A stretch of 4,746 bases of DNA. Origin: a virus (Duplodnaviria; Heunggongvirae; Uroviricota; Caudoviricetes). Below the pieces are notes generated by a model. That model did not search any database. It had not been told where the DNA came from and was given only the letters and a program-made list of their open reading frames with translations. Positions 1-4,746 of the stretch are shown here, in pieces. The stretch lies in the IMG/VR virus record IMGVR_UViG_2690316028_000005. One strand, given 5' to 3'. The translations under genes were made by a program, and so were the position numbers. Within the stretch, counting starts at the first letter, position 1. Every line of letters begins with the position of its first letter.

Positions 1-3
1 CAC

Positions 4-170
4 AAATATGCCAACGTTGGCACATTTCAAGTAGCTCAATCATTCCCAGCGCTGGGAATCATCCTCAAAACCGCAAACGTCTGCGGTTTCAGTACAATCA
101 GGTAATATAGATTGGGGAGCTTTACTGGTAGAAATATAACGTTTCAAAAGCGCCAGCGTTGGCGCTTTTG
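4..170. repeat. Cluster of four palindromes/hairpins: 4-27 (24 bp, one mismatched pair), 42-59 (18 bp perfect), 68-89 (8-bp arms, 6-nt centre), 145-170 (10-bp arms, 6-nt centre)
   Basis: Hand reverse-complement checks. Three of the four share a CCA(A/G)CG(T/C)TGG core: CCAACGTTGG 11-20, CCAGCGCTGG 46-55, CCAGCGTTGG 153-162. No ORF of 60 aa or more in the region. Confidence 0.6.
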
Positions 171-201
171 AAGGCTGGCAATATCAATAAGCTAATGATG
201 A

Positions 202-230
202 TTGCATCATCTGTTCCAAGTTAGTACACT
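202..230 (+). promoter_or_regulatory. Putative sigma70 promoter for a small RNA (-35 TTGCAT 202-207, 17-bp spacer, -10 TACACT 225-230)
   Basis: Hexamer spacing read from sequence; predicted start near 237, the first base of the left inverted-repeat arm. Match to consensus is only moderate. Confidence 0.3.
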
Positions 231-236
231 TATCCC

Positions 237-270
237 TGTTAGTGGATGCGTGACGCGCTCAGGTTGAGGC
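237..270. repeat. Left arm of a 34-bp inverted repeat (partner 488-521)
   Basis: Reverse complement of 237-270 equals 488-521 at 33 of 34 positions; the one difference would be a G-U pair if both arms are transcribed from the + strand. Confidence 0.9.
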
Positions 271-311
271 TCATTACCTTGAACAGAGATTCATCACCTT
301 AAGCCCCAAAG

Positions 312-346
312 AAAAAAGCCTGACCTCACCAGTTGGGCTTTTTTTT
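312..346. terminator. Bidirectional rho-independent terminator
   Basis: A-tract 312-317, 7-bp stem 318-324 with 332-338 (GCC/GGC base, two wobbles), 7-nt loop, then T8 at 339-346. The reverse complement also ends in a T-run. Confidence 0.55.
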
Positions 347-368
347 GTCCGTTATTTACTCCAGTCCT

Positions 369-396
369 TTGATTACATTGCTGATACCCTTATAAT
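369..396 (+). promoter_or_regulatory. Putative sigma70 promoter for the toxin mRNA (-35 TTGATT 369-374, 16-bp spacer, -10 TATAAT 391-396)
   Basis: Perfect consensus -10 and TTGA-type -35; predicted start near 403, giving a leader of about 190 nt before the ORF at 593. No LexA box (CTGT-N8-ACAG) seen. Confidence 0.5.
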
Positions 397-487
397 CACG
401 GCGTTAGTGGGTGTCGCGTTCTGACACAACGCAGGCATGTGAAACGTGTTCAAGCCCTGGCTGGATTACGGGTGGTGCCGCTCCAGT

Positions 488-521
488 GCCTCAACCTGAG
501 CGCGTCATGCATCCACTAACA
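488..521. repeat. Right arm of the 34-bp inverted repeat; proposed sRNA target site in the toxin mRNA leader
   Basis: Partner of 237-270. Lies 61-94 nt upstream of the GGAG at 582-585 and overlaps an AUG at 507 that heads a 9-codon upstream ORF. Confidence 0.9.
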
Positions 522-592
522 ATGCAACACCGTTAACCAGGCAGTGGAAGGGCTTTAACGATGATGCCGCGCTCCTGTAGTGGAGCAAACGG

Positions 593-676
593 ATGAAGGG
601 ATTTCTTCAAATCGCTGTCATCGCTCTTAAGGCGATTGTTGCCTTTATTGAGTTGATTCTGGCCTGCTTACCGTAA
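593..676 (+). CDS. 27-aa hydrophobic single-helix peptide, candidate TisB-like type I toxin (MKGFLQIAVIALKAIVAFIELILACLP)
   Basis: Hand translation; below the ORF-track size cutoff. GGAG 582-585 sits 7 nt before the ATG; in-frame TAG at 578-580 rules out an upstream extension. Resembles E. coli TisB as I recall it (MNLVDIAILILKLIVAALQLLDAVLKYLK): about half of the 20 core positions identical, including the helix-embedded Lys. Confidence 0.5.
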   Translation: MKGFLQIAVIALKAIVAFIELILACLP

Positions 677-695
677 GCGGTCAGGAAACGTAAGT

Positions 696-733
696 AAGGC
701 CACCGGCTCACCCCCGGTGGCCTTTAACATTTC
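696..733 (+). terminator. GC-rich hairpin (11-bp stem 696-706 with 714-724, 7-nt loop) followed by TTTAACATTT; possible 3' end of the toxin transcript
   Basis: Perfect 11-bp stem verified by hand, 20 nt after the toxin stop. The U-tract is interrupted, so termination efficiency is uncertain. Confidence 0.4.
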
Positions 734-928
734 TGAGTCTGCGTCGTCGCCGAACTGCCATTCATTTAAAGCAGGCTGTGGCGGTAACGCTGGATTTAAG
801 GTAGCACTGACGGCTTCAATTCCTGCGATATCTTGGCGTGTCGTTTTGATTAAAGCGCATTAGAAACAAATTTCACCGTTCTGATTAATCATGTTTACCG
901 GACTATTCAAAGCAAGGTAAATCTCAAT

Positions 929-1273
929 ATGGCACGACCTCAGACGGTTAATCAGTTACCCGACCCGATCAAGAAAGAACTTAATAAAAAGCTGACCGAA
1001 AGTTCATTCAGCGGTTACGTTCAGCTTACTGAGTGGTTAAACTCGTTGGGATACCCGGTTTCAAAATCATCATTGCATCGCTATGCTGAACGCCGCCGCC
1101 TGTCGCTTATTGCAGGGAGCGATGCTCCTGGTGCAACAGCTAATATTGTGGATATTAAACTTCGCTGTCTGGAGATTGCCTCGCTCTGTTTAAAAACCGA
1201 CGAAAAGCTGCCAACAGATGAAGTAACAAAACACGCTGAAAATTTGATGGGGTGGCTTTACGACCAGAAATAA
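929..1273 (+). CDS. Hypothetical small protein (114 aa), possibly a helix-turn-helix DNA-binding or terminase small-subunit-like protein
   Basis: ORF-track ORF with ATG start and AAGG 11 nt upstream. The N-terminal pattern (QLPDPIKKEL...SLHRYAERRR) recalls small phage DNA-binding proteins; family assignment is from memory and unverified. Confidence 0.65.
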   Translation: MARPQTVNQLPDPIKKELNKKLTESSFSGYVQLTEWLNSLGYPVSKSSLHRYAERRRLSLIAGSDAPGATANIVDIKLRCLEIASLCLKTDEKLPTDEVTKHAENLMGWLYDQK

Positions 1274-1282
1274 TTGACTGCG

Positions 1283-1301
1283 CGGGAGGCTTGCCCTCCC
1301 G
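1283..1301 (+). terminator. Hairpin just after the 929-1273 stop (7-bp stem CGGGAGG/CCTCCCG, 5-nt loop); possible attenuator
   Basis: Stem verified by hand; no clean U-tract follows. Sits ahead of a C-rich, G-poor tract at 1321-1380. Confidence 0.25.
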
Positions 1302-1402
1302 TTACGTATACGGAAACTCTTTTACAAACCCCCATCCAACCTTTTCCAACATCTTCCCCCATAGTCCCACAATTATCTCACGGGAAACCCTGTATTTATC
1401 TC

Positions 1403-1537
1403 ATGTCTAATCACGTTGGTGGTGTTCGCCATCACCTCGGCTTATTCACTACCGAAGCGGCGGCGCGTGCTGCGTACCTGAAAGCTAAAGCCAGATACCA
1501 TCCGTCAACGCCAGCCGATTTATTGCAGGCTGCCTAA
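1403..1537 (+). CDS. Possible 44-aa ORF with a degenerate AP2-like motif (GGVRHHLGLFTTEAAARAAY); may be a gene remnant or non-coding
   Basis: ATG-initiated sub-ORF of the track ORF 1274-1537, whose TTG-started N-terminus is low-complexity and Pro-rich. Weak ribosome-binding site. Confidence 0.2.
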   Translation: MSNHVGGVRHHLGLFTTEAAARAAYLKAKARYHPSTPADLLQAA

Positions 1538-1555
1538 TCCTCGGAGGTTCCATTA

Positions 1556-1981
1556 ATGGCTGATGAAAAGCCGATTAGAGCGCTGGCAGATGATGACCCG
1601 CGCCGCCAGCGGTACGCTGAACTGTTGGCGCAGGCTGGCCGCATGACTATTCCACGGCTGCATCCGGGCGATGCTAACAGTGTTATGAGTCAGCTTGCGA
1701 CAATGCTCGGAGCACCTGTCCCGATAGTAGGTGCTATGACTGAGCACGCCGCTGCATGGCGTGCCTGTCTTCTGGAGCAAGGGCTTGGTGATCTTCTGGA
1801 TGGCTTGAGTAAGCAGGTGCTGACCATCTTCTTTCTGCTCTGCTGGAGAGACAGCGCCTTGCGATTGGCGGGTAAGCAAAAGGAACGGTTTGCAGCGGCC
1901 AGCGAGGGTTTGACCATTGAGCAATACCGGGCAATGCACCCGGCTTACAGAGAGGATAAAGAAAATGATAACCACGATTAA
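1556..1981 (+). CDS. Hypothetical protein (141 aa)
   Basis: GGAGG 1543-1547 is 8 nt before the ATG; GC-rich; overlaps the next ORF by 17 nt. Confidence 0.75.
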   Translation: MADEKPIRALADDDPRRQRYAELLAQAGRMTIPRLHPGDANSVMSQLATMLGAPVPIVGAMTEHAAAWRACLLEQGLGDLLDGLSKQVLTIFFLLCWRDSALRLAGKQKERFAAASEGLTIEQYRAMHPAYREDKENDNHD

Positions 1982-2264
1982 ATTAAGGTGGCGGTACATC
2001 GAGCCGCCACCAATGACTGGCGCACTCGCTGACCTGAAACAGTGGGTAATGGATACCGGAGAGCCTGAGCTTGAAGCTAAATTTCGTAAGCTGCTGGGGC
2101 TGATGCGCCGCAATGGTATCAGTGACGAACGTGTTAATGCGATGGCCGCCGAGCTTTATGCTCTGGTATGCCAACGCCAGCGCGAAGAATACGAAGCCTG
2201 CAAACGGGCTGCATCTGACAGTGGAGGCTTTGAATCATGGTTACACGGACAGACCAACTACTAA
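1965..2264 (+). CDS. Hypothetical protein (about 99 aa; start trimmed from the track TTG at 1917 to the ATG at 1965)
   Basis: AGAGG 1951-1955 is 9 nt before the ATG at 1965; overlaps the upstream ORF stop at 1979-1981. Confidence 0.6.
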   Translation: MITTIKLRWRYIEPPPMTGALADLKQWVMDTGEPELEAKFRKLLGLMRRNGISDERVNAMAAELYALVCQRQREEYEACKRAASDSGGFESWLHGQTNY

Positions 2265-2674
2265 GAAAAGCGATGCGAGGCTATCTGGAATATCTCGGCA
2301 ACATGCCGCTAGCGGAACGCATTAAAAATTCTGCTGCGTTCGATGATGTGTATCACTTCCTGTTGAATGGTTCAGGACGGCTGGAGTTGCGCCGCGCTGA
2401 TGTGGCCGCTGTCCGTGTCTTCCTGTGGAATTATCAATACCGACGCTGCGCGGTGACAGCTAAGCCGCTACGCCTCGCGTCTGCTGTATTGGATCACTGT
2501 CACCGAACTGGACGTGTGCGCGCTGTGGTTCATCGTTCGGCCAATGCAGCGGAAGGTGGTTATTATGTGGGAAATTTGTGCGGACTCTCACGAGGTAGCA
2601 TGTTAAGCATGCTACCTGCCTACCGCCGACAATACAAGGGGTTGGGCGTTATTTATCCAAGACAACATGCGTGA
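2237..2674 (+). CDS. Hypothetical Arg-rich protein (145 aa)
   Basis: GGAGG 2223-2227 is 9 nt before the ATG; overlaps the upstream ORF by 28 nt. Confidence 0.65.
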   Translation: MVTRTDQLLRKAMRGYLEYLGNMPLAERIKNSAAFDDVYHFLLNGSGRLELRRADVAAVRVFLWNYQYRRCAVTAKPLRLASAVLDHCHRTGRVRAVVHRSANAAEGGYYVGNLCGLSRGSMLSMLPAYRRQYKGLGVIYPRQHA

Positions 2675-2712
2675 TGAGATTATTTCTTTTATTTTCATTC
2701 GGTTATGTGTTG

Positions 2713-2790
2713 TTGTGGCTGCCTTGTTACTTGCCTATATTTAAAACAATTCTTGACGGATTGACGTAGATTGCGTAGGCTGAGCATAAA
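2713..2790 (+). promoter_or_regulatory. AT-rich upstream region of the cargo operon with tandem TTGACG/TTGCGT repeats and candidate promoter hexamers (TTGTGG 2713-2718 with TATATT 2736-2741)
   Basis: Imperfect tandem repeats cTTGACGga 2752-2760, TTGACGta 2761-2768, TTGCGTag 2771-2778. Several -35-like hexamers but no single unambiguous -35/-10 pair. Confidence 0.3.
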
Positions 2791-2875
2791 ACAGTTTCCT
2801 AATATGTCTCCAAACTGAGCTTCAACTTGAGAATACTTCGTTCCTACATCTCCCTTGAAGGGGTAGGAGGATAAT

Positions 2876-3085
2876 ATGAACTTTGATATGCGTACAAACC
2901 AAAATTGTGCATCGTTTTTTAACCCAGCAACCAAGGCGTTTGTCGTCGTTGATTCGTTTGACAACTACGAATTCGATGTGCGTGCTGGTACTTTATCACG
3001 CACTGAATTTGTAGGCACCATCACAGCTTCAAACGATGAAGAGTTGAACAAGAAATTAGCTGAGATCACGGCTGCACACATATGA
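2876..3085 (+). CDS. Small acidic hypothetical protein (69 aa); first gene of the AT-rich cargo operon
   Basis: AGGAGG 2865-2870 is 5 nt before the ATG. About 37-40% GC by hand count against about 55-60% in the upstream genes. I count 10 Asp/Glu and 6 Lys/Arg; no hydrophobic segment. Confidence 0.7.
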   Translation: MNFDMRTNQNCASFFNPATKAFVVVDSFDNYEFDVRAGTLSRTEFVGTITASNDEELNKKLAEITAAHI

Positions 3086-3456
3086 TAACTCAACAGCAGA
3101 TTGATGATTTAGTTGCAGATATTAACGATATCTTGGAAGAAGATAGAGCCAAGCTAAAGATGTCATTTCATTTTGCTGTTGATAGACTTAATGATCCGCG
3201 TAATAAACCTCCAATCACGTTAGCTGAGTTGAGAGTGATTTTTACAAATTTCATTGGACAACACTTGCAGACAATTCTAGGCAAAGATGAGGGATTTTCC
3301 TTCACTATCAAGTGTCAGAAATCTGGTATTGCTATACCGTGCGCTATAGAGCATGAACTTGATATCGGTGCAAAGTGGGTAGTTCAGCAAGTGATCACCA
3401 TCATGCGGAATCCGCAGTTTAACGCGTATCATGGTGATGTCATCTTTGATGTTTAA
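3082..3456 (+). CDS. Hypothetical protein (124 aa); second gene of the cargo operon, translationally coupled
   Basis: Its ATG overlaps the upstream stop in ATGA at 3082-3085. Acidic by my count (17 Asp/Glu, 12 Lys/Arg). An H-x4-R-x4-R motif (HFAVDRLNDPR) is present but I cannot assign a family. Confidence 0.7.
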   Translation: MITQQQIDDLVADINDILEEDRAKLKMSFHFAVDRLNDPRNKPPITLAELRVIFTNFIGQHLQTILGKDEGFSFTIKCQKSGIAIPCAIEHELDIGAKWVVQQVITIMRNPQFNAYHGDVIFDV

Positions 3457-3483
3457 AAGAAAGGCGCTATAGCGCCTTTTTTA
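3455..3483. terminator. Bidirectional rho-independent terminator shared by the cargo operon and the convergent integrase
   Basis: A-rich run, perfect palindrome GGCGCTATAGCGCC at 3463-3476, then TTTTTT at 3477-3482. The integrase stop codon (complement of 3481-3483) lies in the T-tract. Confidence 0.7.
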
Positions 3484-4704
3484 TAAACACGGATAACTGA
3501 CCAACTCCACATACTCCCATAGTTCTTTCATCCCTGCTCCCTTGCTATATGTCCTGAAAGCTTCCGTTTTAGCTTTTTGTTCGGTATGCCCGGTTATTGC
3601 CCCTATGCGCTGTTCTGGTACTCCTGCTCTGTCTAAGCAAGTAATAAAGTGACCACGCAGGGAGTGGAAGCATTGGCGATCTGTAGCCGCTGACAGCACG
3701 CGACGGCGTAGCCGTGTAAATGCCTGCGAGTACCACGGGCCACGCTTACCGTCGGCACGTTTAATCTTGTTCGATTGGGGGAGCAGGTATTCACCGTTGT
3801 TCTGCGCAAGGTATTTATCAACGATGCTGATTAACAGCGAGTGTATGGGGACGTGCCTTACACCCGCTTTAGTTTTAGATTTGCTGACGTAGAAGCAGCG
3901 TACCCCTTCAACTTTGATAATCTCAACTCGTTTGATGCTGGCGATTTCGTCGAGACGCATACCGGAATACAAACCGATTATGATTACGTCTCGTATCTCG
4001 CTACCTGCCTCTTTTATTAATGCCTGTAGCTGGTGTAGTTCAAAAGGTTGATAACTTTCGTTCGTCTGGCGGGCTTCCAGATTGTGGCCGTGAAAGGGAT
4101 TATCAGGGGCGATATTGTCATATTTACGCCGGGCGAAGTCATACAGCGTCCCTAAGCAGGTTAACCAGTTTTGCAGCGTCTGGCGGGAAAACTTATCTTG
4201 GTTCGCTTCCAGAAAGTCAGAGACGAGCCGCCGCCCGATTCCATTTATTGTAATGGTTGGGCGTTTTATTGAATTAGTAAATGCCGATACAGCGCGAACT
4301 GATTTACTCAGCGTGGAATAAGAGCGCCGATCTTTGTATTGCTCTGCATATTCTTTACTGACATCTGTCAATTTTGGTGATGCTGGTTTTCCCCGCTCTG
4401 CTGGAATAGTTGCGGGTGTGGTAATGCTGCTGGATACCCCCGCCAGCAAGTGAAGATCTGTTACAGCGGAATGAATCCGGGTAATGGGGTTATCCGGTTT
4501 CATCATGAGCTGTAGCTTACGGAACTCTAATAAATATTGGTCACGGAAAATGCGAGCTTGCATGATGTCCCGTGTGCCTGTCGATTTCTTGAGCGAGCGC
4601 CGCCCGTTCCAGAGGTGGCGCATGTAGACCGGAATATAGATTTGAAAGATGAATATCCCATCTTTGTTTGCATAAAGATAAGAAGTCTTCGGTAATGACT
4701 CCAA
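3481..4704 (-). CDS. int: Tyrosine site-specific recombinase (phage-type integrase, 407 aa as tracked)
   Basis: C-terminal catalytic signature: Arg in YSGMRLDEI, HSLRGHF (H-x-x-R), then GH and Tyr in FRTYSKG. The N-terminus (LPKTSYLYANKDG...NGRRSLKKSTGTRD) resembles lambda/P22-type arm-binding domains as I recall them. The tracked start is TTG at 4704 with a weak ribosome-binding site; the next ATG is at 4623. Confidence 0.85.
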   Translation of the reverse strand: MESLPKTSYLYANKDGIFIFQIYIPVYMRHLWNGRRSLKKSTGTRDIMQARIFRDQYLLEFRKLQLMMKPDNPITRIHSAVTDLHLLAGVSSSITTPATIPAERGKPASPKLTDVSKEYAEQYKDRRSYSTLSKSVRAVSAFTNSIKRPTITINGIGRRLVSDFLEANQDKFSRQTLQNWLTCLGTLYDFARRKYDNIAPDNPFHGHNLEARQTNESYQPFELHQLQALIKEAGSEIRDVIIIGLYSGMRLDEIASIKRVEIIKVEGVRCFYVSKSKTKAGVRHVPIHSLLISIVDKYLAQNNGEYLLPQSNKIKRADGKRGPWYSQAFTRLRRRVLSAATDRQCFHSLRGHFITCLDRAGVPEQRIGAITGHTEQKAKTEAFRTYSKGAGMKELWEYVELVSYPCL

Positions 4705-4746
4705 CTTACTGATAGTGTTTTATGTTCAGATAATGCCCGATGACTT

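Follow-up and report, generated by a model that had tools for sequence, protein, structure and literature searches.

The window (the whole stretch of DNA that was analysed, 4,746 bp in length) opens with a crowded group of related palindromes, and the question raised by this locus is which protein or nucleic acid might recognise them, and to what end. The preliminary description had drawn attention to a dense cluster of palindromes built on the motif CCARCGYTGG, and such a cluster is real: the motif occurs at 11-20, 46-55 and 153-162, i.e. three times against 0.01 expected, three or more occurrences were reached in none of 200 shuffles, and four dyads are packed into positions 4-172. The accompanying suggestion that these are repeated, related sites and not a product of chance also stands, their sequence having the look of protein-binding sites rather than of ordinary terminators. 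A test of the background frequency did not refute it, the array sequence being confined to one element family, found in 31 of 5426 E. coli genomes.

The palindrome array and the element that carries it

The four dyads of the window are units of a larger array and can be listed as follows.

4..27, no strand assigned: array unit aaatatgccAACGTTggcacattt, with 12-nt arms containing one mismatch; arm class T(A/G)TGCC (TATGCC in this unit), centre AACGTT
39..62 (perfect over 42..59), no strand assigned: array unit attcccAGCGCTgggaat; arm class ATTCCC, centre AGCGCT
68..89, no strand assigned: degenerate array unit aaaccgcaAACGTCtgcggttt, with 11-nt arms containing one mismatch and an asymmetric centre
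143..172, no strand assigned: last array unit ttcaaaagcgccAGCGTTggcgcttttgaa, with a 13-bp stem and a 4-nt centre; arm class AGCGCC

As in an array of binding sites, all units fit one design, in which an A-run, an arm, ARCGYT, the mirrored arm and a T-run follow one another. Written out over its 26 bp, the design is C-AAAA-N5-A(A/G)CG(T/C)T-N5-TTTT-G, where the GC-rich arms are 5-6 nt long and differ from unit to unit. The core that is conserved throughout the family is thus shorter than the 10-bp motif given above, and consists of the 6-bp centre A(A/G)CG(T/C)T flanked by the A-run and the T-run; the 10-bp core common to three of the window units is partly a coincidence, three of the four having arms that end in CC. 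In several window units the centre is asymmetric (AACGTC, AGCGTT), possibly a sign of decay. Apart from the four units, a single palindrome with arms of at least 8 nt is found in the whole 4746-bp window, namely aagaaaggcgCTATAGcgcctttttt at 3457-3482, which is situated between the end of an ORF at 3456 and the end of an integrase gene at 3481. Its appearance is that of a common bidirectional terminator, and it has no kinship with the array family.

The cluster had been suspected to continue beyond the start of the window, and this is indeed the case. In the closest relative (L001, from E. coli AW1.7, 95% identical) the array starts 16 bp after the gene for a ribbon-helix-helix repressor and comprises 14 palindromes, of which the window dyads correspond to units 11-14, with ten further units to their left. 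The number of clear units per copy ranges from 3 to about 14. Spacings between unit centres in AW1.7 vary from 28 to 79 bp, with no fixed period or helical phasing. Orthologous units are palindromic even across copies that are only ~73% identical, by way of changes on both arms (cttcaaaag/cttttgaag versus ctccaaaag/cttttggag, and ccgca/tgcgg versus cggca/tgccg), and the degenerate unit at 68-89 has aaacggcaAACGTCtgccgttt as its orthologue in L011, with a compensatory arm change. A search of the phage collection with the DNA of the array region returned no match.

Individual copies show a number of further peculiarities. In MS 115-1 (L002, 8005-8030) units 11 and 12 are fused through a common core. 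A satellite copy of ~73% identity, truncated by IS5, lies between tRNA-Ser and infA in E. coli ST131 (L009/L010), and possesses one extra unit (L009, 9234-9257); the remnant has become fixed at this single locus in 23 E. coli genomes, of which many are ST131 and some have a BcepMu-like prophage as well (SaT040, for example). The 14 unit centres of AW1.7 (L001, 7556-8171) strictly alternate between AACGTT and AGCGCT, a pattern that is absent from L009 and L099, and alternation was dropped as evidence since other copies do not keep it. An annotated 79-aa reading frame (ORF79) spanning units 2-6 of AW1.7 was rejected as a gene, as it has no family match and is absent from the 73%-identical L009; because this frame is not conserved and the units are read in inconsistent frames, the array is treated as non-coding. 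A CRISPR array was likewise discarded as a candidate, given that the units differ, are palindromic and are 28-79 bp apart without a fixed period.

The element that carries the array occupies the first part of the window, with the following features.

1..1413, plus strand: right-hand part of a non-autonomous element of ~7.8 kb, 95% identical to E. coli AW1.7
237..520, plus strand: structured non-coding region adjoining the array, closed by a 34-bp inverted repeat (237-270 with 487-520)
929..1273, plus strand: truncated small-terminase-like gene, corresponding to the N-terminal part of Mu gp27 (114 aa versus 181 aa in PhiKM)
1360..1413, no strand assigned: right terminus of the element (...CTCATGTCTAATCA), with GAGATAA(A/T)T repeats; the junction was placed by comparing three insertions

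Positions 3-1400 of the window share 95% identity with a chromosomal segment of E. coli AW1.7 and 93% with segments of eight further complete genomes of this species, and these segments lie at different loci (within ynbC in AW1.7, between dacD and sbmC in MS 115-1). Comparison of the junctions gives a size of 7.6-8.0 kb for the element, and one IMG/VR contig of 7799 bp is the element exactly, end to end; a scan of the genome collection for the element added four further loci only. The ends of the element, TGATCCACCGCGCG... and ...CTCATGTCTAATCA, have TG...CA termini (TGATCC...TAATCA), and a perfect 6-bp target duplication accompanies eight independent insertions, including those in a Citrobacter IncF plasmid, Erwinia tracheiphila and Intestinirhabdus. 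In the window, the target sequence CGTTGG follows directly after the element end, at 1414-1419. The TG...CA termini, the repeated subterminal sites and the fixed 6-bp target duplication are Mu-type traits, and the GAGATAA(A/T)T repeats are presumed to be transposase sites. More specifically, the right terminus matches the end of the phage PhiKM (L015, 20577) with the pattern TGATTAGAC(A/T)TGAGATAAAT...GTGAGATA, and the tape-measure protein of the element is 71% identical to that of the same phage (Escherichia phage PhiKM, Bcepmuvirus).

Besides the tail tape-measure protein, the predicted products of the element are a protein similar to the N-terminal part of a head protease/scaffold, a late activator of the Mor/C type, a DUF3102-like protein of 252 aa, a small repressor of the ribbon-helix-helix type and a truncated small terminase, the last of which (929-1273) matches Pfam PF11985 with E = 2.4e-14 over profile positions 1-50 of 173 and the PHROG small terminase subunit. 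None of its nine ORFs is a gene for a transposase, a transposition ATPase or an integrase, and Pfam, PHROGs, NCBIfam and PADLOC identified no integrase, primase or replication genes in the element. Models of defence systems had no significant match to the element, and Rfam gave only sub-threshold chance matches over the whole window. Since a DDE transposase and ATPase of its own are absent, the element is considered non-autonomous, and since its terminus and tape-measure protein match those of PhiKM in the absence of a transposase, it is considered a satellite-like derivative of BcepMu-type phages. The shared ends and the missing gene suggest that it would depend on the transposase of a helper phage. 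Neither of the two proteins that the preliminary description had put forward as possible binders of the palindromes is supported: the integrase is encoded beyond the element end at 1413 and therefore belongs to a different island, and the small protein of 929-1273 is a truncated small-terminase N-terminus without a tie to the palindromes.

A palindrome inside the DUF3102 gene of helper phages

In the BcepMu-like phages examined, the putative helpers, a palindrome of the same family occurs singly. It interrupts the DUF3102 gene (gp10 in BcepMu) always at the same codon position, one to two genes upstream of the transposase gene. This arrangement is found in PhiKM, KP12, Phi06_2974B and BcepMu, at 75 of 80 IMG/VR loci, as well as in prophages of Ralstonia and other betaproteobacteria. 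A literature search on the function of DUF3102 or on the BcepMu palindrome returned nothing relevant. Of 5426 complete E. coli genomes, 634 (ST131 included) carry BcepMu-like DUF3102 genes, versus 9 that are matched by window positions 1-1400, so that helpers are about 70 times commoner than satellites.

The helper palindromes comprise 27 distinct 26-mers with 14 arm types. PhiKM, for instance, combines the arm ACGCTC with the centre AGCGCT, KP12 the arm AGCGCA with AGCGCT, and L041 the arm TGTGCC with AACGTT. Over a set of 28 distinct palindromes, 92.9% of cells are paired and changes on both sides are seen in 9 of 12 pairs, a covariation score that was reached in none of 500 shuffles. The central pair (12:15) covaries as well, with AGCGCT, AACGTT and GTTAAC all found, and because this pair would close an impossible 2-nt hairpin loop, the symmetry belongs to duplex DNA. 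The palindrome diverges faster than its flanks: two loci that are 93% identical over the 150-nt flank differ at 8 of the 26 palindrome positions. Such changes alter the encoded peptide (PKRSALSVL, PKAQALALL, PNVPALAHL and others), which forms a low-confidence linker in the structure model of DUF3102. As the peptide changes and is a low-confidence linker in the model, the constraint therefore acts on the nucleic acid.

The arm type maps one-to-one onto a helix-turn-helix-like segment encoded about 60-100 nt upstream: AGCGCA is associated with SKRTAQVMMQ, ACGGCA with AERTARLVMQ, T(G/A)TGCC with PYRTSVRMMQ, ACGCTC with APQVARRMMQ and ACGGAC with EPRVARRMMQ. In a sliding-window analysis, computed on the well-aligned part of the upstream region, the partial correlation with arm type is highest (r = 0.72-0.75) between 74 and 119 nt upstream of the palindrome centre, which is also the most variable part of the DUF3102 gene; for the upstream IclR-like gene and for the downstream 105-aa and transposase genes it lies close to zero or below. 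The type of centre, in turn, tracks one residue in G[KR]xKL, a few codons after the palindrome, at 58 of 58 loci. A GCGCT centre is accompanied by Thr (40/40 distinct loci) and an ACGTT centre by Ala or Ser (18/18), and both centre states are present within four different arm classes. The main caveat is linkage in a recombining cassette, which could explain part of the covariation, the segments in question lying within about 120 nt of the palindrome. Read at the level of sequence, the covariation points to the helix-turn-helix-like DUF3102 proteins of helper phages, encoded elsewhere, as the putative binders of the array.

The units of the satellite array reproduce helper variants. Among 21 distinct unit arms from ten satellite copies, 9 are the same as a helper arm and 19 deviate from one at no more than one position, whereas shuffled arms gave means of 0.25 and 2.0 respectively (maxima 3 and 9 in 20,000 trials). 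Imperfect units have the same orientation as in helper genes. As for the window itself, the arms of unit 4-27 are those of the single palindrome in the helper phages L084, L092, L093 and L034-L045, the palindrome at 42-59 is identical to the site of helper locus L075, and the arm ACCGCA of unit 68-89 is one mismatch away from the helper classes AGCGCA and ACGGCA. The arms of unit 143-172 are those of helper loci L085 and L086, and over its outer 10 bp it agrees fully with the palindrome of BcepMu, ttcaaaagcggcGTTAACgccgcttttgaa. Satellite (L004/L006) and helper prophage (L054) were seen together in IMG genome 2713896776, the one genome in which this was observed.

What the array may be for

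Judging from these sequence comparisons, the array is probably a collection of candidate binding sites of several specificities for the DUF3102 proteins of helper phages. In such a mechanism, a dimer of the helper DUF3102 protein would bind its own palindrome through the helix-turn-helix-like segment, and the arm sequence and the recognition helix would have co-diversified into about a dozen specificity classes. The satellite array would gather the sites of many of these classes, and it could therefore, in this proposal, engage the DUF3102 protein made by whatever helper variant happens to be active in the same cell. The outcome of such binding might be that (i) the helper transposition machinery is drawn to the satellite in an enhancer-like manner, (ii) the helper protein is titrated from its own site, where it would form an autoregulatory roadblock, or (iii) the satellite senses the helper. 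Recruitment of the transposition machinery is the outcome that we favour, by analogy with the Mu enhancer and with mini-Mu elements. Shown by the sequences are the design of the sites, the single site per helper, the covariations, the correspondence of array units with helper classes, and the mobility of the element and its lack of a transposase gene; the binding, the dimer and the functional outcome are what we infer.

It is conceivable, if rather doubtful, that the array goes further and works as a ‘master key’, i.e. a library of the mutually exclusive, class-specific cis sites that the various helper lineages would each use with a ParB/KorB-like DUF3102 protein of their own. Its bearer would be a satellite of BcepMu-like phages, of a kind so far undescribed, that has lost its transposase; any helper class could then replicate or activate the satellite, and the rapid co-diversification of helix and site in the helpers would reflect an arms race with satellites of this sort. 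Besides the possible linkage and the possible decay of units noted above, two observations count against the multi-specificity reading itself. The arm of the co-resident helper L054 (TGTGCC) has no exact match among the three units of the array that shares its genome, the nearest being TCTGCC, one base off; and the Tenebrionibacter copy (L012), a deletion derivative of 4.4 kb, is without the array and nevertheless has a 6-bp target duplication. If the multi-specificity reading is true, it would (i) assign a role and a target in DNA to DUF3102, whose early gene is conserved next to the transposase gene of BcepMu-like phages, (ii) offer a natural series of matched classes of protein helix and DNA site for the study of how specificity diversifies and (iii) be the first sign that transposable phages have dedicated satellites, and that a satellite is able to broaden its range of helpers by gathering helper-specific cis sites, and not by encoding proteins.

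Other explanations start from the satellite itself. The palindromes are unlikely to be operator, packaging or partition sites for its own proteins (the ribbon-helix-helix repressor, the small terminase of 929-1273 or the 252-aa DUF3102-like protein), even though the array begins so close (16 bp) to the repressor gene and the satellite encodes a DUF3102 homologue that is 34% identical to that of PhiKM. About 12 arm classes are too many for one protein, the helix of the satellite homologue (KKREAYNAMRVAL) is unlike every helper class, and the repressor gene varies between copies (HicB-like, YlcI-like) whereas the design of the array is constant. Moreover, a separate dyad at about 7305-7345 of L001, TACGTACCATTG-N15-CAATGGTACGTA, is a more obvious repressor operator: situated between the 252-aa gene and the ribbon-helix-helix gene, in their divergent promoter region, it is likely to be the operator for the satellite's own repressor. 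Two kinds of unit, CCGCTC-AGCGCT and GCGGAC-AGCGCT, have no exact helper class yet are present in most copies, and these could be the satellite's own. Alternatively, the palindromes might act as hairpins in RNA or single-stranded DNA, the array being a stack of bidirectional intrinsic terminators that insulates the repressor operon from the right-hand module, and the helper copy an attenuator upstream of the transposase gene. The succession of A-run, GC-rich stem and T-run does have the shape of a bidirectional terminator, the hairpins are stable (-6.9 to -20.6 kcal/mol) and the stems covary; all the same, this is quite improbable. The covariation includes the central pair of positions, between which a hairpin allows no pairing, the types of mismatch show no strand bias (three types for G.T, two for A.C), and terminators leave unexplained both the tracking of helix by arm and of residue by centre, and the up to about 14 differing copies that reproduce helper variants. 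In a scan for Rho-independent terminators (GC-rich stem, loop of 3-8 nt, T-rich tail) only unit 143-172 passed, on the minus strand, and the class was rejected for the array. Of the earlier suggestion of weak terminators at 68-89 and 145-170, this leaves the latter, which may double as a minus-strand terminator; the other three units failed the scan, and a terminator role of the palindromes is at most secondary.

Transcribed hairpins could also serve as an antisense library, pairing through their self-complementary loops with the identical palindrome in the early mRNA of a helper, and so lowering or sensing the transposase operon. Units identical to helper palindromes, the self-complementary centres AGCGCU and AACGUU and a diversification of helper stems that is fast, as in an arms race, would all be in keeping with it. 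This is very unlikely nonetheless, given that the covariations between protein and site are left unexplained, that four-nucleotide loops make poor kissing partners according to established knowledge of RNA structure, that no promoter was found for the array, and that there would be no reason for the palindrome to persist in those helper clades in which satellites were not observed. The gain, loss and fusion of units between copies (the fused units 11/12 of L002, the extra unit of L009) would suit selfish palindromes, or palindromes made by mutation (REP-, BIME- or MITE-like, or arising by template switching) that have no function in the element, an explanation that is extremely improbable here. 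The array is restricted to this element family (31/5426 E. coli genomes) with none in the phage collection, its units remain perfect across copies ~73% identical, and their agreement with helper classes greatly exceeds the chance level; REP/BIME or MITE repeats were discarded on this restriction and on the units being unlike one another.

Known systems and neighbouring features

The arrangement that would be recognised by helper DUF3102 proteins works most like ParB-parS and KorB-OB, where a palindrome is located in or beside the gene of its binding protein (here a putative one) and specificity classes exist; the palindrome inside its own gene is a trait that the helper DUF3102 loci share with systems of this type. 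However, this is not a ParB system, because a CTPase domain, a ParA partner and a relation in sequence are all missing: the helper proteins match DUF3102 only in Pfam, with no ParB-type CTPase domain or sequence kinship, and the helper gene maps contain no gene for a ParA partner. The match of DUF3102 to the helix-turn-helix fold of ParB/KorB is weak, and the surroundings are those of an early transposition operon in a transposable phage rather than of a partition locus.

A second comparison is with phage Mu. Elements of the mini-Mu type, which have phage ends, are mobilised in trans and transpose poorly without a compatible enhancer; the Mu enhancer is the operator region, which is bound by the N-terminal domain of the transposase itself. 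What recalls the Mu internal activation sequence and mini-Mu is a candidate cis-acting site that lies internally, close to the gene for the transposase in a transposable phage, together with a non-autonomous element that has phage ends and would be mobilised in trans. The differences are that the transposase is here of the Tn552/rve type and that the candidate binder is a separate protein.

With phage satellites (P4-like, PICI, cfPICI, PLE and PICMI) the element shares its small size, a handful of morphogenesis and packaging genes of phage origin (tape measure, protease/scaffold-like, small-terminase fragment, late activator) and a presumed dependence on a helper. Unlike these it has no integrase, primase or replication genes, and its mobility is that of a transposing element, which has ends of the helper type and duplicates 6 bp of its target. 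Because integrase and replication genes are absent, it falls outside the known families (P4-like, PICI, PLE), and a literature search found no description of satellites of transposable phages. Finally, many clustered sites able to sequester or recruit a DNA-binding protein are also known from datA (DnaA) and from plasmid iterons, but those repeat one specificity, whereas the units here differ and match distinct helper classes.

The structured region that adjoins the array (237-520, 284 nt) folds at -130.5 kcal/mol (z = -9.7) and is 96-98% conserved in all satellite copies, i.e. above the conservation of the array, in constant orientation; its long stem shows one compensatory change, in L004. 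Within it are sites resembling a terminator (312-351) and a promoter (369-396), and the region may represent a structured RNA with a regulatory role.

The remainder of the window (1414-4746) is an island unrelated to the satellite, with several small ORFs. Positions 1414-2559 match one E. coli record at 87%, the tyrosine-integrase-like gene is located at 3481-4704 on the minus strand, and the end of an IS1 copy is found at about 4690-4746.
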